Assembly: GCA_963830975.1 (NCBI GenBank)
Contig: CAWHOI010000004.1
Coordinates: 532,924-596,923, forward strand
Origin: an uncultured Solirubrobacterales bacterium
Lineage (GTDB): Bacteria > Actinomycetota > Thermoleophilia > Solirubrobacterales > Solirubrobacteraceae
DNA: 64,000 nucleotides
Direction: 5' to 3'
Positions 5,003 through 52,557 of this stretch are shown piece by piece. Position numbers and translations under genes: made by a program. Under the pieces are notes generated by a model, which saw only the letters and a list, made by a program, of their open reading frames with translations, ran no database searches and was not told the DNA's origin. Each line of letters opens with the position of its first letter. Within the stretch, counting starts at the first letter, position 1.

Positions 5003-6676
5003 ATGTCGACCGACGCGACACCACGAACAGGACGCATAGCCGCCGCGTCGCCGGCGACGGCTGCTGAGCACGTGCTCCCGAGCGCGACGGCGGCGCTGCG
5101 CCGCTACCGGCACGGAGCGGTCCGCACGGAGCGCTGGCGCGATCCGAGCGGGTCCGATCTGTTCCGCTCCTCGCTGGCGGTCCGGGCGTCGGCGCTGGCG
5201 CTCACGCTGATGTTGCTGAGCAGCCTGTTGCTGGTGTCGCTCGCCGCCGCGCCGCTCACCACCGCACACGAGAGCATCCTCGTCCCGTCGGCGAGATCCG
5301 GCGACTATCCGCGGTGGCTCTCCGGACCGACCGGCGTGTTGACGAGCTGGTTCACCGCCAGCACGCACACCCAGCGCGTGCTGTTCACCGCGGTGATCGC
5401 GACGATGCTCGTCGCCTACCTGATCGTCGCCTACTCGGCCCCACGGCTACGTCGGTTCTGGGTGCTCGGAGCGATCGTGGCGATGCACCTGATCTTCTTC
5501 CTCTCGCCGCCGCTGACGCTCAGTGACGTCTTCAACTACCTCAACTACGGGCGCATGGAGGCTCTCTACCACCTGAACCCGTACGTGACGATCCCGGCGC
5601 TGGAGCCCCACAGCGACCCCACGTTCCTGCTCAGCAACTGGCACGGCCTGCTGAGCCCCTATGGCCCGCTGTTCACGCTCTTCACGATGGCGCTCGTGCC
5701 GCTCGGCGTCGCCGGCGCGTTCTGGGCGATGAAGGCGACGCTGATGCTCGCGAGCCTCGGGACGGTGTTCCTGGTCTACCGCTGTGCGGAGCTGCTGGGC
5801 CGCAATCCGCTCACCGCCGCCGTGGTCATCGGCATCAACCCGATCGTGCTGGTCTGGGGGCTCGGCGGGGACCACAACGACTTCCTGATGCTCTTCTTCC
5901 TCGTGCTCGGCTTCTGGCTGCTGCTGCGTGCCAACTCGATGCGCGTCGGCAAGCGCGCCCGTCCGGCGCCGGCGCACGCCCACGGCCCGATGGGGGGGCT
6001 GCGCCGCGCGTGGGCTTGGCTGGACGGGATGCCGCGGCCGCTCGTCGTCGGCGAGCCGGCGGCGTGGATGGAGATTGGTGCCGGCATCTCGCTGATCGCC
6101 GCGGTCGCGGTCAAGGCCTCCTCCGCGGTGCTGATACCGGTCGTGCTGGCCGGGGCGGCGCGACGCCTGCGCGTGGCCACCGGCCTCGTGATCGGGCTGG
6201 TCGCGGCGGCGGCGATGACGGTGGTCGCGTTCGGCGTCAACCTGCCGAACGTGGGACAGCAGGACCGACTCGTCGTCCCGGACGGGATTCCGAACCTGAT
6301 CGGCCTCGCGTTCGGCTTTGGCGGCTACACCTCGCAGATGCGCAGCGTGTTCACGCTGCTGCTGGTCGTGGTGATCGTCGGCTGCTCCGTCTGGGTCTGG
6401 CGCACGCGGCGTTGGCTCACGGCATGCGGCTGCGTGACCCTGGCGCTGCTGCTCACGCTCGGCTGGACGCTTCCGTGGTACATCATCTGGCTGCTGCCGT
6501 TCGTCGCGCTGTCGCGCTCGAAGGGCCTGAAGGTCGTAGCCACCGTGTTCGGCATCTACATCTACCTCGCCTGGATGCCGTACTCGTCCGAGATCCTCAG
6601 CTTCCTGCACATCAATCCGGCCAACACGAACCTCGGCGCGCAGGAGACGAGCTTCTTGGACTCGCTTCTGTTCTGA
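5003..6676 (+). CDS. polytopic GT-C glycosyltransferase (DUF2029/GT87-like, polyprenol-phosphate-mannose-dependent mannosyltransferase-like)
   Basis: More than 10 predicted TM helices. The first-loop motif is PPLTLSDVFNYLNYGR..NPY..PYGPLF. I place the start at the ATG at 5003, downstream of the cspA terminator. Confidence 0.55.
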   Translation: MSTDATPRTGRIAAASPATAAEHVLPSATAALRRYRHGAVRTERWRDPSGSDLFRSSLAVRASALALTLMLLSSLLLVSLAAAPLTTAHESILVPSARSGDYPRWLSGPTGVLTSWFTASTHTQRVLFTAVIATMLVAYLIVAYSAPRLRRFWVLGAIVAMHLIFFLSPPLTLSDVFNYLNYGRMEALYHLNPYVTIPALEPHSDPTFLLSNWHGLLSPYGPLFTLFTMALVPLGVAGAFWAMKATLMLASLGTVFLVYRCAELLGRNPLTAAVVIGINPIVLVWGLGGDHNDFLMLFFLVLGFWLLLRANSMRVGKRARPAPAHAHGPMGGLRRAWAWLDGMPRPLVVGEPAAWMEIGAGISLIAAVAVKASSAVLIPVVLAGAARRLRVATGLVIGLVAAAAMTVVAFGVNLPNVGQQDRLVVPDGIPNLIGLAFGFGGYTSQMRSVFTLLLVVVIVGCSVWVWRTRRWLTACGCVTLALLLTLGWTLPWYIIWLLPFVALSRSKGLKVVATVFGIYIYLAWMPYSSEILSFLHINPANTNLGAQETSFLDSLLF

Positions 6677-24159: not shown

Positions 24160-24290
24160 GCCTACGGGGTGAGCTGTCGGGCTCGCGCGAGTCGCGCTAC
24201 GGCCGTGATCCGGCCGATTCGCCCCACGGAGATGGTCTCCGCATTGGTTCCCCCGCCCACCCTGCGCGGACGCAGCGTGGTTCGGCGTGG
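24160..24290 (-). promoter_or_regulatory. c-di-AMP riboswitch (ydaO/kimA class, Rfam RF00379-like) in the leader of the RlpA-like gene
   Basis: The minus strand reads ..GCCGAACC..GGGCGGGGGAACCAAUGC-GGAGAccaUCUCC-GUGGGGCGAAUC-GGCCGgaucaCGGCC-..GAGCCCGACAGCUCACCCCGUAGGCC. This matches, from memory, the conserved ydaO blocks CGGGGGAnCCA, GGGGyGAAUC and CCCGACAGCUnACCnCGUAnGC. It ends 26 nt before the GTG start. Confidence 0.65.
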
Positions 24291-44349: not shown

Positions 44350-44503
44350 GGGGCACCGCCGCGTCCATCCTGGCCCCGCTTCGGAAACTCTTACGCATGG
44401 CGGCGAGTGGCCTGGGTACGTCCCATCACAGGAGCCTCGACGCCGCGGCGCGGGCCCGAAGGCTGCCGATCGAATCCGTCAAACGGCGACCCCAGGAGGC
44501 GTG

Positions 44504-45298
44504 ATGAGCATCGCAACAGCAACTCCCGCGCAGGCGCGGCACGAGGGCGAGCAGCTCGCCGCGCTGTGGCGTGATCGCTCCCAGCCGGCGGCGCGCGCCG
44601 CCCTGGTCGAGCGCTTCATGCCGCTCGCGCGCAGCCTCGCGCGCCGCTACGAGCGCTCGTCGGAGCCGCTCGGAGACCTCGTGCAGGTTGCCTCGCTCGG
44701 CCTGCTCAAGGCGATCGACCGCTTCGACCCGGAGCGCGGCAACGCCTTCGTCTCCTTCGCCGTGCCGACGATCCTCGGCGAGCTGCGCCGTTACTTCCGC
44801 GACTGCTGCTGGGACGTCCACGTCCCGCGCGGCGCGCAGGAGCGCACGCTGAAGCTGGAGGAGGCCGAGCGGCGACTGACGAGCGACCTTGGCCGGCCGC
44901 CGTCGGTCGCCCAGCTCGCCCAGTACCTCGAACTCGACGGCGAGCAGGTGCTCGACGCGATGGCCGCCGGGCACGCCTACGACGCGCTGTCGCTCGACGC
45001 GCCGCGCACCTCCCCGAGCGGCGAGAAGGCGACAACCTACGGCGAGCAGCTGGGGGCGCTCGACGAGCGCTACGAGCTGATCGACGAGGCGGTCACGATC
45101 GCCGGCGCGCTGGAGCACGTGACCCCGCGCGAGCGGCTCGTGCTGCAGCTGCGCTTCGCCGAGGATCTCACCCAGTCGGAGATCGCCGAGCGGATCGGCG
45201 TCTCGCAGATGCAGGTCTCGCGACTGCTGCGCCGGGCGCTCGAGCGTCTGCGCATCCTCGCCCGGGCCGCCGAGGACGACGAGGGCGCGGCGGGGTGA
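44504..45298 (+). CDS. SigB/SigF/SigG-family RNA polymerase sigma factor (copy 1)
   Basis: LVQVASLGLLKAIDRFDPERGNAFVSFAVPTILGELRRYFRD (region 2) and LTQSEIAERIGVSQMQVSRLL (region 4). AGGAGG at 44494-44499. The GTG at 44501 is also possible. Confidence 0.92.
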   Translation: MSIATATPAQARHEGEQLAALWRDRSQPAARAALVERFMPLARSLARRYERSSEPLGDLVQVASLGLLKAIDRFDPERGNAFVSFAVPTILGELRRYFRDCCWDVHVPRGAQERTLKLEEAERRLTSDLGRPPSVAQLAQYLELDGEQVLDAMAAGHAYDALSLDAPRTSPSGEKATTYGEQLGALDERYELIDEAVTIAGALEHVTPRERLVLQLRFAEDLTQSEIAERIGVSQMQVSRLLRRALERLRILARAAEDDEGAAG

Positions 45299-45419
45299 TG
45301 CGCGCGCCGATCTGCGCGAGCTCCGCGTCCCCTCCGCCGTCATTCTGAACCGCTACGGTGCTCGGTGCAGATCGGTCGGCGACCTTGGACGACGCGAGCA
45401 CTACAACCAGACGATTCGG

Positions 45420-46271
45420 GTGGCCATGACCGCCGCCGCGCCCACTCCGCCCAACGTCGCCCTGGAGCTCGCGAGCCGCGCTGAGGACGTGACGCTCGTG
45501 CGCGAGGTGCTCGCCGGCCTCGCCGACGCGGTCGACTTCGGTGACGCGCTCGACGACATCAAGGCCGCCGTCAGCGAGGCGGCCAACAACGTCGTCGTCC
45601 ACGCCTACGGGGGCGCCGAGGGGCCACTCGAGGTCGAGCTGCGAGTGCGGCCGTTCGAGCTCGAGGCGCTGGTACGCGACCGCGGCGTCGGGGGCGCCGC
45701 GCCCATGCCGGCGCCCATCGACGACGAGACCTTCACCGGCGGGGGCATCGGGTTGAAGGTGATCGAGGCGCTGAGCACGCGCAGCGAGTTGCGCGCGCAC
45801 GACGACGGCACCGAGGTCGCGATGTGGTTCGCGATCCCCGACCCGGCGGACTCGCTCGAGATCCACGACCGCGACCAGGTCCGCATCGACGGCGACGTGC
45901 GGATCGCGATCGCGCCGGCGCGGCTGAGCGCCGGCATCCTCGGCCGCCTCGTGGGGGCGCTGGGGGCGCGGGCGGGCTTCTCGATCGACCGCCTCTCCGA
46001 CGCCCAGCTCGTCACCGACGCCCTCGCGGCCCGCCTCGGTCCGGCGCTCGACGGCACCTACCTGAGCGTCGCGCTCGCGCTGCTCGAGGGCCGCACGCTC
46101 GCGCTGCGCGTCGGCGAGCTCGCGACGGGCGCGGCGGCCGGCGTCCTGGCGGCCTCCGCGGTCGGCGATATCGGGCCGCTGATCGAGCGCCTCAGCGACG
46201 AGGTCGACGTCAGCGCCGGTGAGCGCGGCGAGGTGATGTGCCTGCTCCTGCGCGACGCGGCGGGCTCCTGA
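45420..46271 (+). CDS. RsbW-like anti-sigma kinase fused to an uncharacterised ~145-aa C-terminal domain
   Basis: The N-terminal ~135 aa carry AVSEAANNVVVHAY..RDRGVG..GGGIGLKVI. Residues ~140-283 (RIAIAPARLSAGILGRLVGALG..) match nothing I recognise but keep a coding GC3 bias. Confidence 0.72.
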   Translation: MAMTAAAPTPPNVALELASRAEDVTLVREVLAGLADAVDFGDALDDIKAAVSEAANNVVVHAYGGAEGPLEVELRVRPFELEALVRDRGVGGAAPMPAPIDDETFTGGGIGLKVIEALSTRSELRAHDDGTEVAMWFAIPDPADSLEIHDRDQVRIDGDVRIAIAPARLSAGILGRLVGALGARAGFSIDRLSDAQLVTDALAARLGPALDGTYLSVALALLEGRTLALRVGELATGAAAGVLAASAVGDIGPLIERLSDEVDVSAGERGEVMCLLLRDAAGS

Positions 46272-46285
46272 CCTCAGTCGCTGTG

Positions 46286-46358
46286 CGGCTGGGTGCATGC
46301 ACCCAGCCGTCGGGACGGTGCATGCACCGTCCCGCGGGTCGGCGCATGCGCCGACCCG
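46286..46358. repeat. array of three tandem perfect 24-bp palindromes centred on GCATGC
   Basis: CGGCTGGGTGCATGCACCCAGCCG (46286-46309), CGGGACGGTGCATGCACCGTCCCG (46311-46334) and CGGGTCGGCGCATGCGCCGACCCG (46335-46358). The shared frame is CGG-NNN-GG-Y-GCATGC-R-CC-NNN-CCG, and every arm difference is compensated in the other arm. Confidence 0.9.
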
Positions 46359-46387
46359 AAAGACTCACTGGCCGAAAAACTCACTGG
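46358..46387. repeat. two copies of a 14-nt direct repeat (16-nt period)
   Basis: GAAAGACTCACTGG (46358-46371), CC, then GAAAAACTCACTGG (46374-46387), with one mismatch. The second copy covers the stop codon of the sigma gene on the minus strand. Confidence 0.8.
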
Positions 46388-47163
46388 ATCTCCTTGCGCA
46401 GCCGCTCGAGCGTCGAGCGCAGCAGCCGCGAGACATACATCTGCGAGAGGCCGACGCGCGCGGCGATCTCGGTCTGCGTGAGGCCCTCGACGAAGCGCAG
46501 CCGCAGGATCGTGCGCTCGCGCGGGTGCAGCCCGTCGAGCGCGCCTGACAGGGCCAGGCGCTCGGCGACCGCCTCGGGGAAGTCGCCGGTGGTCGCGAGC
46601 GCGCGCTCCGCGGCCGGCGCCGGCTCGCCCGGGGCGGGCTCGGCCGGCTCGAGCGGGACGGCGTCGTGGGCGAACCGCGCGTTCAGCGCCTCGAGCACCT
46701 GCTCGACGCTCACGCCGGCCTCCGCCGCGAGCTGCGCCGCCGTCGGCGCACCGCCGATCCGCGCCGCGAGCCTGCGCTCGGCCGCCTCGATCGCCAGGAC
46801 TCGCTCCTTCAGCGCGCGGGGGACGTGGACGTCCCAGGTCGCGTCGCGCATGTGCCGCTTCAGCTCGCCCAGGATCGTCGGCACGGCGAAGGCCGGGAAC
46901 GGCGTACCGCGGCGCGGGTCGAACGCGTCGACCGCCTTGATCAGCGCCAGGCTCGCGACCTGCTCGAGGTCCTCACGCGGCTGCGGCGAGTGGCGGTAGC
47001 GCGCGGCCAGGCGGCGCGCCAGCTCCAGATGGCGCTCGATCAGCGCCGCGCGCGCCTGCGTGCTGCCGCTTTCGCGCAGCTGCCTGAAGAGCGCATCGAC
47101 GCCGGCGTCGTCCGCTGTGGGCTGTGCCGCCGCTTGGCGGCTTCGTCGTCGCTGAGGACTCAC
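46381..47163 (-). CDS. SigB/SigF/SigG-family RNA polymerase sigma factor (copy 2)
   Basis: LEQVASLALIKAVDAFDPRRGTPFPAFAVPTILGELKRHMRD and LTQTEIAARVGLSQMYVSRLL. The GTG at 47163 is my best guess for the start. The rest of track ORF 46381..48861 is noise. Confidence 0.88.
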   Translation of the reverse strand: MSPQRRRSRQAAAQPTADDAGVDALFRQLRESGSTQARAALIERHLELARRLAARYRHSPQPREDLEQVASLALIKAVDAFDPRRGTPFPAFAVPTILGELKRHMRDATWDVHVPRALKERVLAIEAAERRLAARIGGAPTAAQLAAEAGVSVEQVLEALNARFAHDAVPLEPAEPAPGEPAPAAERALATTGDFPEAVAERLALSGALDGLHPRERTILRLRFVEGLTQTEIAARVGLSQMYVSRLLRSTLERLRKEIQ

Positions 47164-47256
47164 GCAGGCGCTGATGATGGCATTCGTGGCATGGGGTTCC
47201 CCGGCCGCGGGTAGCACCAATCCATCGATTCGTCCCCTGGAACGGAGGTGACCGCG

Positions 47257-47544
47257 ATGCGGGGATCCAGCGACCTGCGCCTGCTCGACCGCGCCGTCAG
47301 CCGGCTGTCCGCCGAGGTGCCTCAGCCGGTCACGCCCGACACGCCGGCGGCGCCGTCGCCCGACCCGCCGGCGGCGCCGTCGCCCGACCCGGTCGTGCCC
47401 AACCCGGAGGCTCCCGGCGGCCCGGTCGTGCCGGATGAGCCCGCGACGCCGATCGACCCGACGCCCGGCGAGGAGTTGCCGGCCCCGGCGGGGCCGGCGG
47501 TCGAGCCGCAGCCCGATACGCCCGCGTCCGAACCGGGCGATTGA
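47257..47544 (+). CDS. proline-rich hypothetical protein
   Basis: GGAGG SD 8 nt before the ATG at 47257. MRGSSDLRLLDRAVSRLSAEV is followed by a Pro-rich tail. GC3 is high, but low-complexity sequence makes the call weak. Confidence 0.4.
   Translation: MRGSSDLRLLDRAVSRLSAEVPQPVTPDTPAAPSPDPPAAPSPDPVVPNPEAPGGPVVPDEPATPIDPTPGEELPAPAGPAVEPQPDTPASEPGD
47343..47390 (+). repeat. perfect 24-bp tandem duplication inside the Pro-rich ORF
   Basis: GCCGGCGGCGCCGTCGCCCGACCC occurs twice, encoding (P)AAPSPDP twice. Confidence 0.9.
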
Positions 47545-47652
47545 GAGGCCGCGGTCGTGGGTAGTCCGGGTCAGAAGGCACCGTGCGATTTTGAGCGAGG
47601 AGGTTCGAGATGGGCACCGGCACGAGCATCGTCCTGATCGTGGAGGAGCGCG

Positions 47653-48114
47653 GTGACGACCTCCGCTAGGCGCGAGCCCGGCAGCCTGTGGGCGTTCCGC
47701 CCGGGCCTCGCCCGCGCGTCCGGCGGACCGTTCGGCTACGCCGTGGAGGCCACGGACGGCGCGGTGGGACACGTCATTGCGGCGGGGGAGGGACTCGGCG
47801 CGAGCTATGTGATCGCCGCCGGCGGCCCCTGGAACGGCGGGCGGATGGTGATGCTGCCGGCGGGCGTGATCGAGCGCGTCGACCATGACGCGCTGGCCGT
47901 CGTGCTCGCCTGCTCGCGCGAGCAGATCGCGGGCGCGCCGCCGTTCGAGGGCGACCGCTACCAGGACGGCGCCTACCGCGCCGAGCTGGGCGAGTACTAC
48001 GCGCGGCTCGGCGCTCCTGACGTTCACGGCGCGGCGGCGTCGGCCGTCTCGCGGTTGCAGCGAGCGGTGCGCGTGCCCGGGCCGCAGCCCGTGCCTCGCG
48101 GGCGCCTGGCCTAG
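47653..48114 (+). CDS. PRC-barrel domain protein
   Basis: GYAVEATDGAVGHVIAA..RMVMLPAGVIERVDHDALAVVLACSREQIAGAPPFE fits the PRC-barrel pattern. GGAGGAG lies 4 nt before the GTG. Confidence 0.7.
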   Translation: MTTSARREPGSLWAFRPGLARASGGPFGYAVEATDGAVGHVIAAGEGLGASYVIAAGGPWNGGRMVMLPAGVIERVDHDALAVVLACSREQIAGAPPFEGDRYQDGAYRAELGEYYARLGAPDVHGAAASAVSRLQRAVRVPGPQPVPRGRLA

Positions 48115-48264
48115 ACATGGTGCCAGGCGGCTGCGGTCCGGGCGCCCTCGTTTGAGGGCGAACCTGGCGGGTAGGTGCAGGGGTGGACCGATCCCTCGCC
48201 GCGTGCAGCGTGCCGGGCGCGTGCGAGGGGAATGCGAACACGGCGCGCGGAGGAGGCAAGGAAG

Positions 48265-48444
48265 ATGGTTGCGTTGCTTGTGCTGTTGCTGATCCTCGCG
48301 GTGTTCGGCGGACTGGGCTTCGCCGCACACGCGCTGTGGATCGTGCTGCTGGTGGCGCTCGCCCTGTGGGCGATCGGTTTCCTCGTCGGCGGGGCCGAGG
48401 CCGGCCTCTCCTCGGGGCGGCGGCGCTGGTACGGCCGCTGGTAG
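48265..48444 (+). CDS. small two-TM membrane protein (59 aa)
   Basis: AGGAGG at 48251-48256. MVALLVLLLILAVFGGLGFAAHALWIVLLVALALWAIGFLVGG. Confidence 0.5.
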   Translation: MVALLVLLLILAVFGGLGFAAHALWIVLLVALALWAIGFLVGGAEAGLSSGRRRWYGRW

Positions 48445-48479
48445 CGGACGCCTCGCAGGGCGGGGGTCTCGGTGTGCGG

Positions 48480-48502
48480 GCGGCTCGGGGCGACCGAGCC
48501 GC
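48480..48502. terminator. hairpin between convergent genes
   Basis: GCGGCTCGG-ggcga-CCGAGCCGC, a 9-bp stem that ends at the pepA stop codon. There is no clear U-tract. Confidence 0.35.
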
Positions 48503-49960
48503 TTACGCGCCGCTCGCGCTGGCGCTCGCGAGCTCGACGAGCAGTCGCACGCCGTAGCCCGAGCCGCCCTTGTCCGCGTAGGGGCGGCCGAGATCCCAGG
48601 CCGTCCCGGCGACGTCGAGGTGCGCCCACGGCGTCTCGCCGGCGAAGCGGTGCAGGAACTCCGCGGCGGTGATGGCGCCGGCGAGACGTCCCGGGGGGGC
48701 GTTGTTGAGGTCGGCGAACGTGCCCTCGACGATCCGCGCGTACTCGCGATGGAGCGGGAGGCGCCAGGCGAGCTCGCCGGTGCGTTGCGCCGCGGACGCC
48801 ACCTGCGCGCACCACTCCTCGTCGTTGCTGAGCAGACCGGCGTGGCTGTGCCCGAGCGCAACCAGGCAGGCGCCGGTCAGCGTCGCGAGGTCCACCAGGC
48901 GCTCTGCGCCCTCGGCGATCGCGTGCGCGATGCAGTCGGCGAGCACGAGGCGCCCCTCGGCGTCGGTGTTGTTGACCTCCACGCTGACGCCGGCGAGCGT
49001 GCGGACGATGTCGCCCGGGCGCACCGAGCGCCCGCTCGGCATGTTCTCGGTTGCGCCTACGACACCGATGACGCGAACCGGGAGCTCGAGGCGGGCGATC
49101 GCTCCGATCGCCTCGATCACGGCGGCGCCGCCCGACATGTCGTATTTCATCTCCTCCATGTGATCGCCGGGCTTGAGCGAGATGCCGCCGGAGTCGAAGG
49201 TGACGGCCTTGCCGACGAAGCCGAGCGTGGGGCCGCTCGCGTTCGGGCCCTCGTAGCGCAGCGTGATCAGCGCCGGCTCCTCGTAGGAGCCCTGGGCGAC
49301 CGCGGCGAACGCGCCCATGCCGCGAGCCTCGATGCCGGCGCGCCCCTCGACGGCGACGCTGAGCCGCTCCAGCTCCGCGCCGAGCGCGCGAGCGCGCTCC
49401 GCGACGTCGGTCGGCGTCATGTCGTTCGCCGGGGTGTCCTGCAGGACGCGCGCGGCATTGGCCGCCTCCGCGAGCACCCGCGCGCGCTCCACGGCCGCGC
49501 CGAGCTCGGCCGCCGCGCTGACGATCAGCTCCTCCGGCGGGGCGGGGCGCTCGATCTCGGTCCGGGGCGGCCCCTTGTAGCGGTCGAAGCGGTAGGCGGC
49601 GAGGATCGTGCCCTCGACCAGGGCGCCGGCGATGGCGGCGGCGTCTTCGCCGTCGAAGCCGCCCGGCAGCTCCCAGCACAGCGTCTTCGCGCTGATCTCG
49701 GCGGCCCGCTTGGCGACCCTGGCCGCGCTCTGGCGCGCCGCCTCGGCGTCGAACTCGGCGCGCTTGCCGAGGCCGGCGAGCAGCCAGCGCCGGCCGCCGT
49801 CGTGGGCGATCGCGAGCGCGCCCGCGGCGCGCTTGGCCTCGCCTGACCGCAGCAGCGCCTGCAGCGCGGCCGGCTCGGCGTCCTCGCCGTCGAACACTCC
49901 GACGACGAGCGTGTCGGCGGCGGTCTTCGCCGGCGAGTCGGTTGTGGCGTGGACCCGCAT
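48503..49960 (-). CDS. pepA: leucyl aminopeptidase (M17)
   Basis: VTFDSGGISLKP..MKYDMSGGAAV..NNTDAEGRLVLAD. Confidence 0.93.
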   Translation of the reverse strand: MRVHATTDSPAKTAADTLVVGVFDGEDAEPAALQALLRSGEAKRAAGALAIAHDGGRRWLLAGLGKRAEFDAEAARQSAARVAKRAAEISAKTLCWELPGGFDGEDAAAIAGALVEGTILAAYRFDRYKGPPRTEIERPAPPEELIVSAAAELGAAVERARVLAEAANAARVLQDTPANDMTPTDVAERARALGAELERLSVAVEGRAGIEARGMGAFAAVAQGSYEEPALITLRYEGPNASGPTLGFVGKAVTFDSGGISLKPGDHMEEMKYDMSGGAAVIEAIGAIARLELPVRVIGVVGATENMPSGRSVRPGDIVRTLAGVSVEVNNTDAEGRLVLADCIAHAIAEGAERLVDLATLTGACLVALGHSHAGLLSNDEEWCAQVASAAQRTGELAWRLPLHREYARIVEGTFADLNNAPPGRLAGAITAAEFLHRFAGETPWAHLDVAGTAWDLGRPYADKGGSGYGVRLLVELASASASGA

Positions 49961-50054
49961 ACGCGGACGCGAGCATACACAGCGCGCCGGAGCGCCCGGC
50001 GAGGCTCACTAGACTGCGTCGAGCCCGCCGATCGCTCGGCGCGAGAACCCGCAG

Positions 50055-51230
50055 ATGCCCACGACCGTGATCCTTGGCAGCGCCCGCACGCCGATCGGCA
50101 AGCTCGGCGGCGCGCTCGCGTCGCTGCCCGCGACGAGGCTCGGCGCGATTGCGATCGCCGGCGCGCTGGAGCGCTCGGACGTCTCCGCCGAGGCCGTCGA
50201 GCACGTCGTCATGGGCACGGTGCTGGCCGCCGGGCAGGGGCAGGTGCCCTCGCGCCAGGCCCAGCACGAGGCCGGGATTCCCGTCACCGTCAGCTCCGAG
50301 ACGCTGAACAAGGCCTGCGCCTCGGGTATGCGCGCGGTCTCGCTGCTGGACACCGCGATCCGCGCCGGCGACCTCGAGGTGGGAGTCGGCGGGGGGATGG
50401 AGTCGATGTCGCGGGCGCCCTACCTGCTCGAGGGGGCGCGCTTCGGTCTGCGCATGGGCGATACGACCGCCCACGACGCGATGCTGCGCGACGGCCTCGT
50501 GAGCCCCTGGAGCGGCAAGCACATGGCGGCCGAGGCGACCGAGGTCGCAGCCGAACTCGAGATCACCCGCGCCGACATGGACCGTTGGGCGCTGCGCTCG
50601 CATCAGCGGGCGGTTGCAGCGACCGACGACGGGCGGCTCGCCGAGGAGATCGTCGCCGTCGGCGTCGGCTCGCGAACCGGCGAGGCCACCGTCGAGCGCG
50701 ACGAGGCGCCGCGGCGCGACACGACGCTCGAGGCGCTCGCGAAGCTGCCGCCGATCTTCGTCGCCGACGGCAGCCACACGGCCGGCAACTCGCCCGGCGT
50801 GAACGACGGCGCCGCCGCGATCGTGGTCGCCAGCGAGGACTGGGCCACGGCGCACGGCAACGAGCCGCTGGCGACGATCGTCGCCACCGCGCAGGCCGCC
50901 GACGAGTTCCCCTACCTCGCGCGCACGCCCGCGCTGGCCGCGCGCAGGGCGCTCGAGAAGGCCGGCCTGCGGGCGTCGGAGATCGAGGTGTGGGAGATCA
51001 ACGAGGCTTTCGCGTCCGTCACGCTCGGCTCGCTGCGGATGCTCGGGATCGAGGAGGAGCGCGTCAACGTCAACGGCGGCGCGATCGCGCTCGGCCACCC
51101 GATCGGCGCCTCCGGCGCCCGCATCCTCGCCTCGCTCGTGCACGAGCTGCGCCGCCGCGGCGGCGGGCTCGGCTGCGCGGCGATCTGCTCCGGCGGCGCC
51201 CAGGGCGACGCCGTCATCGTGCGCGTGTAG
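50055..51230 (+). CDS. acetyl-CoA C-acetyltransferase (thiolase II)
   Basis: NKACASGMRA (active Cys) ..GNSPGVNDGAAA..NGGAIALGHPIGASGARI..CSGGAQG. Confidence 0.92.
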   Translation: MPTTVILGSARTPIGKLGGALASLPATRLGAIAIAGALERSDVSAEAVEHVVMGTVLAAGQGQVPSRQAQHEAGIPVTVSSETLNKACASGMRAVSLLDTAIRAGDLEVGVGGGMESMSRAPYLLEGARFGLRMGDTTAHDAMLRDGLVSPWSGKHMAAEATEVAAELEITRADMDRWALRSHQRAVAATDDGRLAEEIVAVGVGSRTGEATVERDEAPRRDTTLEALAKLPPIFVADGSHTAGNSPGVNDGAAAIVVASEDWATAHGNEPLATIVATAQAADEFPYLARTPALAARRALEKAGLRASEIEVWEINEAFASVTLGSLRMLGIEEERVNVNGGAIALGHPIGASGARILASLVHELRRRGGGLGCAAICSGGAQGDAVIVRV

Positions 51231-51293
51231 GCGCGCGGCGACGTGCGGCAGCCGATGCGCGGCGGCTATACGATCCGGGGCGTCTCTCCCCGC

Positions 51294-51710
51294 ATGCCCG
51301 CCTCCACAAGCCAGAAGAAGATCCGCGTGGTCGTCGCCAAGCCCGGCCTCGACGGACACGACCGCGGCGCCAAGATCATCGCTCGCGCGCTGCGCGACGC
51401 GGGCATGGAGGTGATCTATACCGGGCTGCACCAGACGCCCGAGCAGATCGTCGAGACGGTGATCCAGGAGGACGCCGACGCGGTCGGCCTCTCGATCCTC
51501 TCCGGCGCCCACATGACCCTCGTGCCGCGGATCATCGAGTTGCTGCGCGAGCACGGGGCGGGCGACGTGCTGGTGACCGTTGGTGGGACGATTCCAGCCG
51601 AAGACATACCCGAGCTGAAGGCCATCGGCGTGGCCGAGGTGTTCACGCCCGGCGCCTCCACCGCCGCCGCGATCGATTTCATTCGCGCCGCCGTGGCGCA
51701 CGCCGCGTGA
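51294..51710 (+). CDS. cobalamin-binding domain protein (methylmalonyl/isobutyryl-CoA mutase small subunit-like)
   Basis: [44 protein letters not shown] carries the DxHxxG B12-binding motif (GLDGHDRG). Confidence 0.88.
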
Positions 51711-51759
51711 GCGAAGCGGCCGCAGCCCCCCTGTCCGACCGTCCCGAAGGAGTGCTCCG

Positions 51760-52557
51760 ATGAAGATCTGCGTCTTGGTCAAAGAGGTGCCGGACGCGGC
51801 GGTGCGCAAGCGGATCGACCCCTCGACGGGGCGGCTGGATCGCAGCGGGGAGCGGACGTTGAACCCGTATGACACGCACGCGATCGAGGCGGCGTTGGCG
51901 ATTCGCGAGGGTGGCGTGGTCGAGGTGTCGGAGATCGTGGCGGTGTCGATGGGGCCCGCGGACGCGGTTCGGGCTCTGCACAAGGCCGTGTCGTTGGGCG
52001 TCGACCGTTCGGTGCTGCTGTGCGACGATGGCCTGGCGGGCTCGGACGTCGCGGCGACGGGGTTCGCCCTGGCCGCGGCGCTGCGGCGGGAGGAGCCGGA
52101 TCTGGTGCTGCTGGGGCAGCAGTCAGACGACGGGGAGTGCTACACGGTGGGCGCGATCGTCGCGGACCACCTGGCGATGCCGTCGCTGACGCAGGTGATC
52201 GAGCTCGAGGTGCAGGCCGGCGGCGCGTCGTTGCGTTGCGAGCGTCAGGCGGAATACGGCTACGACACCGTCGAGGTCGATCTTCCGGCGGTGGTGTCCG
52301 TTGGCGATGCGATCAACGAGCCGCGCTACCCGTCCTTGAAGGCGATCATGGGGGCGAAGAAGAAGCCGCTGCTCACGCTCGGGCTCAGCGATCTGGGGAT
52401 CGACGCGGAGCGCGTGGGGGCGGCGGGATCGGCGGCGCGCTGGAGCGGCTCGAAGGAGCCGCCGCGCAAGCCGCCGGGACTGATAATCGAGGACGAGGAC
52501 AGCGACGCGACGGTCGCGACGATCGTCGCCTGGCTGGACGAGAGGAAGCTGATCTGA
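51760..52557 (+). CDS. etfB: electron transfer flavoprotein beta subunit
   Basis: MKICVLVKEVPD..NPYDTHAIEAAL..LVLLGQQSDDGE. Confidence 0.92.
   Translation: MKICVLVKEVPDAAVRKRIDPSTGRLDRSGERTLNPYDTHAIEAALAIREGGVVEVSEIVAVSMGPADAVRALHKAVSLGVDRSVLLCDDGLAGSDVAATGFALAAALRREEPDLVLLGQQSDDGECYTVGAIVADHLAMPSLTQVIELEVQAGGASLRCERQAEYGYDTVEVDLPAVVSVGDAINEPRYPSLKAIMGAKKKPLLTLGLSDLGIDAERVGAAGSAARWSGSKEPPRKPPGLIIEDEDSDATVATIVAWLDERKLI

Follow-up and report, generated by a model that had tools for sequence, protein, structure and literature searches.

A family of tandem perfect palindromes at gene ends in Solirubrobacterales, with a predicted role at transcript 3' ends

REP/BIME elements of Enterobacteria and the REPINs of Pseudomonas are extragenic, hairpin-forming palindromes arranged in mosaics of distinguishable unit types, which are found chiefly between cistrons or immediately 3' of genes and vary in number and arrangement between orthologous loci. 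REPs are extragenic and cluster near 3' ends (PMC3116915, PMC3337134), and the roles proposed for REP/BIME elements include mRNA 3'-end protection, attenuation, and gyrase binding. They are expected to occur in tens to hundreds of near-identical copies per genome, with a conserved stem and a GTAG-type head, in alternating orientation with linker motifs, and REPINs are accompanied by RAYT transposases. A second group of hairpins is formed by the U-tract-less ("I-shaped") and the tandem or bidirectional terminators of high-GC Actinobacteria, which are G+C-rich, lie just after stop codons, are frequent between convergent genes, and can be used from both strands. In S. clavuligerus, 353 of 535 highly structured 3' ends are without a U-tract (PMC8269248).

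Solirubrobacterales are abundant soil actinobacteria that have scarcely been studied by experiment, and we know of no description of transcript-end formation in this order. In the window (the whole 64-kb stretch of DNA analysed, with a G+C content of 71.7%), a convergent junction between a kinase-like gene of the anti-sigma type and a sigma-70-family gene carries three perfect 24-bp palindromes in tandem. This array belongs to a hairpin-array family that is undescribed so far in Rfam 15 or the searchable literature; no description of the family was found in the latter, nor anything on palindromes of Solirubrobacter or Thermoleophilia, tandem GCATGC hairpins, or RAYT in Actinobacteria.

The array between the kinase-like and sigma factor genes

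The earlier note had described three exact 24-mers, 1 nt and 0 nt apart, within a 109-bp convergent spacer. Their sequences (CGGCTGGGTGCATGCACCCAGCCG, CGGGACGGTGCATGCACCGTCCCG, and CGGGTCGGCGCATGCGCCGACCCG), coordinates, and spacings were all reproduced (Table 1), and the spacer does extend from the stop of the kinase-like gene on the plus strand to that of the sigma gene on the minus strand (46381). The frame shared by the units, CGG-NNN-GG-Y-GCATGC-R-CC-NNN-CCG, goes beyond chance, as had been claimed, being matched three times in the window and never in 100 dinucleotide-preserving shuffles, and a scan for all perfect hairpins and palindromes detected no further tandem palindromes across the 64 kb. 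Unit 1 has identical copies at three surveyed loci (L007, L065, and L073), and unit 3 is the most frequent unit of the family, with 12 of 261 among the matches listed. The second sigma-70-family gene, 5' of the kinase-like gene, probably shares one transcription unit with it.

Table 1. Features of the palindrome array and its junction (window coordinates)
Feature	Position	Strand	Details
Unit 1, perfect 24-bp palindrome, C-type ("A") unit	46286..46309		CGGCTGGGT-GCATGC-ACCCAGCCG
Unit 2, perfect 24-bp palindrome, 1 nt past unit 1	46311..46334		CGGGACGGT-GCATGC-ACCGTCCCG
Unit 3, perfect 24-bp palindrome, 0 nt past unit 2	46335..46358		CGGGTCGGC-GCATGC-GCCGACCCG
Left flank GCTGTG, 1 mismatch to family A-end flank GCTGTT(CGG)	46280..46285	+	Flank consensus
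Right flank AAAGAC, variant of AACAGC (reverse complement of A-end flank)	46359..46364	+	Flank consensus
HATPase_c_2 anti-sigma-type kinase-like gene	45420..46271	+	E=8e-19; stop 14 nt before unit 1
Convergent sigma-70-family gene, regions 2, 3, 4	46381..47250 (start approximate)	-	Stop 22 nt from unit 3
Second sigma-70-family gene, 5' of kinase-like gene	44501..45298	+	Synteny in L120-L130

The folding check proposed for both strands gave three stable hairpins each way (z about -6). Each strand is predicted to form three 10-bp stems with 4-nt loops, with RNA minimum free energies (MFE) of -71.8 and -76.0 kcal/mol for the two strands (z = -5.9 and -6.1) and a DNA MFE of -40 kcal/mol (z = -7.5). 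The junction has the stablest downstream fold of the 62 gene ends of the window (-63.7 vs. a median of -39 kcal/mol), the remaining ends having ordinary single hairpins with arbitrary loops. The non-canonical orientation pointed out earlier also holds, since the U-rich runs lie 5' of the hairpins on the minus-strand transcript and a consensus promoter/terminator scan of 45000-48000 yielded no terminator-like site with a U-tract on either strand. Rfam 15 contributed no family at the array region at E<=10; the top match, RsmW, reaches 28.6 bits vs. a gathering score of 52, the other low-scoring matches are spurious, and no match at the gathering threshold falls on an array in the window or in 18 other loci.

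Other features of the window deserve mention. A 16-bp tandem duplication at 46356-46387 (CCGAAAGACTCACTGG and CCGAAAAACTCACTGG, 15/16 identical) begins within the final 3 nt of palindrome unit 3, and its second copy spans the sigma stop codon (46381-46383, minus strand) and the last codons; it may be a slippage scar dating from the origin or expansion of the array. The only Rfam family in the window is a c-di-AMP riboswitch (ydaO/yuaA leader, RF00379) at 24160-24286 on the minus strand, with 55.8 bits vs. a gathering score of 38. Two very long minus-strand open reading frames, at 48111-51983 and 47303-48861 (1,290 and 519+ aa), have no Pfam match; the high G+C content has probably produced them as antisense artefacts, and the real genes are likely on the plus strand.

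Distribution, anatomy, and covariation of the family

A survey of one genome per species by the shared frame matched at least 119 stretches. About 94 of the matches listed (119 stretches) come from about 68 metagenome-assembled genomes (MAGs), and the family is thus present in at least about 70 genomes. The array-bearing MAGs are mostly labelled Solirubrobacterales or Solirubrobacteraceae, the few labelled only Actinomycetota or Actinomycetes have flanking genes in common with Solirubrobacterales array loci, and the window itself is 72-78% identical in nucleotides over kilobases to two array-bearing MAGs, which places it in this order too. Since the search frame left the NNN triplets free to mismatch, the matches contain their own control for chance: among those listed, 101 of 104 are perfect palindromes in array-bearing genomes vs. 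1 of 25 in other taxa. The family is confined, among the matches listed, to a single bacterial order, Solirubrobacterales. Phage contigs contained no arrays, their five matches being without exception single and non-palindromic. Beyond the seeded arrays, about 0-2 more were found in 707 kb of flanking Solirubrobacterales DNA, which suggests roughly 5-20 arrays per genome, and the window has one array in 64 kb.

Two individual loci of the survey stand apart. In a Trueperaceae (Deinococcota) MAG, the same centre occurs in an isolated, perfect palindrome of 26 bp between two tRNA genes (GCGGGCGGGCGCATGCGCCCGCCCGC, L056:3440-3465), the only perfect palindromic match outside Solirubrobacterales among the matches listed. 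The longest array among these matches, in a Solirubrobacteraceae MAG (L045:1661-1851), has eight units, five of them with an ACATGT centre; no gene end is confidently called on either side of it, and a c-di-GMP-I-GGC riboswitch lies at 5420-5494 of the same locus.

A count of every perfect palindrome in the listed loci whose arms reach 9 nt or more gave GCATGC as the centre in 258 and ACATGT in 38, any other centre occurring at most 7 times. The conserved core can be written Y-R-CATG-Y-R (C/T before and G/A after), with a CATG that is invariant over about 300 units and at least about 70 genomes, and it is the sole A/T-containing, alternating pyrimidine-purine stretch of the unit. Conservation is limited to this 8-10 bp centre; the outer arms, apart from being rich in G on the 5' side, vary at nearly all positions, so that the 261 perfect units among the matches listed comprise 179 distinct sequences. 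Among these same matches, 244 of 299 units (82%) measure 24 bp, with 28 of 22 bp and 14 of 26 bp. Of 202 pairs of neighbouring units, 158 have a centre-to-centre distance of exactly 24 bp and 135 abut with a gap of 0 nt. Arrays contain one to eight units, with a strong mode of three (55/97 arrays among the matches listed).

Despite the self-symmetry of the units, the arrays have a polarity. A C-type unit (CGG.../CCGG...) stands at one end, the A-end, preceded by the hexamer GCTGTT (consensus G55 C41 T41 G60 T63 T47 of 88 ends among the matches listed), and the opposite end usually has a G-type unit (GGCC.../GACC...) followed by TYC. The window array has a C-type unit at both ends, between GCTGTG and AAAGAC, and the likeness of the latter to a reverse-complemented A-end flank makes it an array of a symmetric A/A type. 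No unit is repeated within any of 99 arrays among the matches listed, thus each arm has a single possible partner, and adjacent units are as unlike as random pairs (4.5 vs. 4.4 differences in 9 nt).

The compensatory arm changes reported for the window are real and family-wide. In 54 three-unit arrays, chosen as perfect and providing 1,620 cells, 99.4% of cells are Watson-Crick paired, and changes are double-sided at all 30 pairs (447 cells) and never one-sided; pairing falls to 67% in shuffled controls and to 33-49% when the partner is slid by 1-3 columns. As this set had been preselected for perfection, matched pairs were also counted, without any filter, around every CATG in the listed Solirubrobacterales loci. 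The distribution is sharply bimodal, with a background mode at 2-3 of 10 pairs and 260 sites at 10/10, and the 9/10 class has 34 sites, of which 27 are simply perfect 22-mers. Only six in-array units have one internal mismatch, five of them of the transition type (G·T or A·C), so that units one mutational step from perfect amount to about 2% and G·U-type pairs to about 0.2% (5 transition-type mismatches in about 3,000 pairs). The folding of a single RNA strand, as known from structured RNAs, needs far less strictness than this near-zero frequency of G·U. The near-absence of such pairs points either to a constraint that acts on both strands or at the level of the DNA, or to a mutational process by which symmetry is restored. 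Such a process is known, as quasi-palindrome template switching perfects imperfect inverted repeats and can make "compensatory" changes in one step (PMC7202029, PMC3820800, PMC8794818).

Gene-end position and change between loci

Gene ends were called from codon-position G+C around 87 non-edge arrays among the matches listed. A stop codon lies within 60 nt on at least one side of 57 of these arrays vs. 5% of random spans, no array is located inside a coding region, and the distance from stop codons is about 0-40 nt. By junction type, 20 of the 87 are convergent, as in the window, 26 tandem, and 9 apparently divergent, about 6 after inspection. The genes that end at arrays include those for IspG and SodA (a convergent pair), ClpP (in four species), ClpX, NusG, SecG, a primary-type sigma factor and another sigma factor, GuaA, a class II aminoacyl-tRNA synthetase, TopA, GyrB, FumC, HtrA, Mrp, an acyl-CoA dehydrogenase, a thiolase, ThiG, and ABC ATPases. 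The set is broad, leans towards housekeeping functions, and has no special tie to sigma factors, and no RNA gene was found by Rfam next to the arrays without a nearby protein-gene end in the 18 loci. Array polarity is independent of gene direction, with the A-end nearer to the adjacent gene 16 times and the B-end 14 times (p=0.86), thus the GCTGTT and TYC flanks are not directional RNA signals for the upstream gene.

Some arrays lie close to the beginning of a gene. In L112 and L118, they are placed a few nt upstream of the Shine-Dalgarno sequence (SD) and start codon of the downstream gene; in the former (L112:1048-1119), a strong Shine-Dalgarno AAGGAGG is found 5 nt past the array and is followed by ATG (downstream 21 nt), so this array must be co-transcribed with the downstream gene or be part of its 5' leader. 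A six-unit array (MAKKVLTTIKLQ..., L008:3473-3616) fills the nusG-rplK spacer, a classic operon boundary, from 2 nt after the nusG stop to 48 nt before the rplK start. Such placements, and the roughly 6-9 of 87 arrays whose neighbouring genes look divergent, show that not all arrays are operon-final terminators.

Relatives of the kinase-like protein of the window are encoded at 80 loci, about 15 of which retain the convergent sigma gene. Only the closest relative (L123, 62% identity) among these about 15 has an array at the kinase/sigma junction, of two units with arms unlike those of the window, and the remaining kinase-relative loci have no CATG-centred palindromes at all. As about 14 of 15 orthologous junctions are without an array, it is not a conserved attribute of the kinase/sigma pair, and the special link to the stress-sigma genes that had been suggested is not supported, arrays adjoining many unrelated genes and being present at only one of about 15 orthologous junctions.

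Elsewhere, when the flanks of loci from different species are homologous, an array is retained at the junction they share, with differences in unit sequence and number. The order of the units differs between L010 and L067, where units are swapped, and downstream of secG the arrays L049:3398-3467 and L081:5224-5293 read B-M-A and A-M-B, that is, the whole array has been inverted in place; two of the units each carry one compensated change, and the short flank bits (GTT and TYC) have moved along. Close orthologous pairs have identical arrays (72/72 and 46/46) between flanks of 71-94% identity, and in more distant orthologues the array diverges about as much as the flanks, yet always in a compensated manner; together, identical arrays amid diverging flanks and compensated divergence indicate a constraint on structure. 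Evidence of copying between loci is weak. Units are shared at 18% within a genome vs. 4% between genomes, a difference driven by one genome in which the same A unit occurs in 4 of 5 arrays. Multi-unit blocks common to non-orthologous loci number 4 vs. 1.8 expected (permutation test, P=0.12). One instance involves the window, whose units 1 and 3 match, 24/24 each, both units of L007:236-283, a non-orthologous locus between the 3' end of a membrane-protein gene and a cupin gene; its source is a distantly related MAG with about 65% nucleotide identity elsewhere, and such double sharing does not exceed chance (P=0.12). A tblastn search of about 1.3 Mb with an IS200-type TnpA query returned no Y1-transposase-like open reading frame, a result that is indicative only.

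Candidate functions and comparison with known systems

The anatomy of the arrays, their position, their compensated evolution, their conservation at orthologous sites, and their independence from orientation and gene identity are direct observations. To account for them, we infer a hairpin module that would act at transcript 3' ends, whatever its orientation, in termination, insulation, or stabilisation, a prediction from sequence in which we place roughly even confidence. Each 24-bp palindrome would give transcripts of either strand one and the same G+C-rich hairpin, with a 10-bp stem and a CAUG/GCAUGC tip, and two to eight mutually dissimilar units, packed head to tail right after stop codons, could terminate or attenuate transcription with no need of a U-tract, as happens in other actinobacteria, and/or bar the way to 3'-to-5' exonucleases. 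At a convergent junction such as that of the window, the array would act as an insulator between the two transcription units. A perfect palindrome is identical on both strands, which accounts for function in either orientation and for the enrichment at convergent junctions. The earlier idea of a 3'-end stabiliser or insulator is in keeping with the position beside stop codons, but not its special tie to stress-sigma units; the window array is most likely a generic gene-end module and not a sigma-factor regulatory device.

A plain terminator model does not explain why the Y-R-CATG-Y-R centre is invariant, why the units are phased at exactly 24 bp, or why the GCTGTT flank is conserved, and so leaves room for a dedicated factor or a role at the DNA level. 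In a more elaborate form of the hairpin module, which is tentative and on the whole unlikely, the arrays would be a separate class of strand-symmetric nucleic-acid modules. A factor particular to Solirubrobacterales, such as a nuclease or an RNA- or ssDNA-binding protein specific for hairpin tips, would recognise the invariant, self-complementary GCAUGC/ACAUGU tip, or the tips would engage in loop-loop "kissing", the perfect dyad being actively kept by hairpin-templated DNA repair and the whole serving on both strands as a termination or processing signal to set the 3' ends of a small set of core genes.

The variability of the arrays between loci raises the possibility of a selfish or domesticated mobile element of the REP/BIME kind, in which a hairpin-specific enzyme (RAYT-type Y1 or similar) would read the CATG tip and GCTGTT flank and insert, invert, or reshuffle arrays, their position after genes reflecting tolerated insertions. 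Presence/absence variation at the orthologous kinase/sigma junction, the in-place inversion, the swapped units, a terminal flank motif that travels with the A-end, the recurrent A unit and within-genome sharing, and the blocks of at least two units common to non-orthologous loci, including the window and L007, would all be expected from such an element, and REPs are likewise extragenic and near 3' ends (PMC3116915, PMC3337134). Nevertheless, the low copy number (about 0-2 extra arrays in 707 kb), the great diversity of units (179 distinct of 261), block sharing that does not exceed chance (P=0.12), stable inheritance at orthologous junctions, the lack of arrays in phage contigs, and the lack of a Y1-transposase-like match in about 1.3 Mb, which is indicative only, make a mobile element doubtful. 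Decidedly unlikely is a DNA-level element whose dyad units, double-stranded or extruded as cruciforms or hairpins, would be sites for topoisomerases, gyrase, or nucleoid proteins at heavily transcribed gene ends, as proposed for E. coli BIMEs. It would suit the strict Watson-Crick symmetry with almost no G·T, a palindrome that runs through the "loop", the exact 24-bp phasing, the confinement of the A/T-containing alternating stretch to the centre, where extrusion would nucleate, the enrichment at convergent junctions and after housekeeping genes, and the irrelevance of orientation (16 vs. 14). However, positive supercoils build up at convergent gene ends and work against cruciform extrusion, for which arms of 10-12 bp are close to the lower limit, and to our knowledge no protein is known to bind the array units.

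The near-absence of mismatched intermediates would be explained if template switching acted in one step, and the arrays could then be a largely neutral by-product of hairpin-templated replication errors that create, perfect, and duplicate palindromes; quasi-palindrome template switching does perfect inverted repeats with one-step "compensatory" changes (PMC7202029, PMC3820800, PMC8794818). Neutrality is nonetheless very unlikely, for it does not explain a centre that is invariant over about 300 units in at least about 70 genomes, the conserved unit length and phasing, the 100% identity of arrays at orthologous sites amid diverging flanks, or the restriction to one bacterial order among the matches listed. 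Finally, dyad-symmetric units between two sigma-related transcription units could be operators for a dimeric regulator dedicated to the flanking sigma/anti-sigma genes, as the earlier note had considered. This is extremely improbable: the arms vary freely around the 8-10 bp centre and offer no conserved half-sites, sites lie at the 3' ends of unrelated genes instead of in the promoter regions of a regulon, the window array sits at the 3' ends of both genes and not at promoters, dozens of unrelated genes are flanked by like arrays, and about 14 of 15 orthologous junctions lack one.

Whichever function applies, the family can readily be searched for by its sharply defined signature of phased, GCTGTT-flanked arrays of 24-bp perfect palindromes centred on Y-R-CATG-Y-R, which marks the ends of core-function genes in at least about 70 genomes. 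For conservation of structure alone, it provides a natural experiment of unusual clarity, as 30 of 30 stem positions covary and G·U intermediates are virtually absent; this scarcity of G·U separates selection on RNA only from a constraint on both strands or on DNA, and bears on the debated possibility that template switching gives rise to "compensatory" evolution. If a protein reads the invariant centre, the arrays would point to a new termination or processing factor and provide a portable bidirectional insulator part for high-GC hosts.

Some further likenesses were considered and set aside. In integron attC sites and the subterminal hairpins of IS200-IS605 elements, structure is kept while stem sequence varies and short motifs stand at the foot or tip of the hairpin, as in this family; the arrays, however, have no extrahelical bases, no R/L boxes (GTTRRRY is unmatched), no adjacent integrase or transposase, and no cassette or other element between hairpins. 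The motifs of parS (TGTT...AACA) and of the actinobacterial SOS box (GAAC-N4-GTTC) do not fit. A CRISPR-like array was rejected as well, since conservation covers a 10-bp centre, what would be "spacers" consist of two half-arms complementary to each other, and there are mostly three units, at gene ends. Avoidance of GCATGC as a restriction site is not apparent, for outside arrays the frequency of GCATGC, about one in 4 kb, is close to that expected from composition.

With REP/BIME elements and REPINs, the family shares hairpin-forming, extragenic palindromes in mosaics of distinguishable units, the location just downstream of genes or between cistrons (57/87 vs. 5%, with none in coding regions), and variation in number and arrangement between orthologous loci. 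It differs from REP/BIME in that its palindromes are perfect and without a loop spacer, only 8-10 bp at the centre are conserved instead of the stem, and self-symmetric units abut at a 24-bp period (spacing of 24 bp in 158/202 and gap of 0 nt in 135/202) instead of alternating in orientation with linker motifs. The sole flank motif is GCTGTT at one array end and there is no GTAG head. Moreover, the roughly 5-20 arrays per genome, with 179 distinct sequences in 261 units and 0-2 extra arrays in 707 kb, are far from hundreds of copies, and the family has no known RAYT, the lack of a match to the TnpA query in about 1.3 Mb being indicative only. The REP/BIME-like cluster first suggested for the window therefore agrees in its position beside stop codons, but membership is not supported by conservation, copy number, head motif, or architecture, and the earlier scenario of hundreds of identical, generic REPs is not what is seen in this low-copy family. 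The U-tract-less actinobacterial terminators have in common with the family a stable, G+C-rich hairpin shortly after the stop codon with no U-tract, frequent location between convergent genes, and a form that is usable from both strands. Ordinary terminators are single hairpins with arbitrary loops that tolerate G·U and bulges and have no common sequence, whereas the arrays have a CATG centre, strict Watson-Crick symmetry, a fixed length, and a conserved flank, are followed not by a U-tract (0 sites in 45000-48000) but by AACAGC or TYC, and in some copies directly precede a start codon. By analogy, the closest functional counterparts of the family would be the REP/BIME elements and the U-tract-less structured 3' ends that predominate in Streptomyces.
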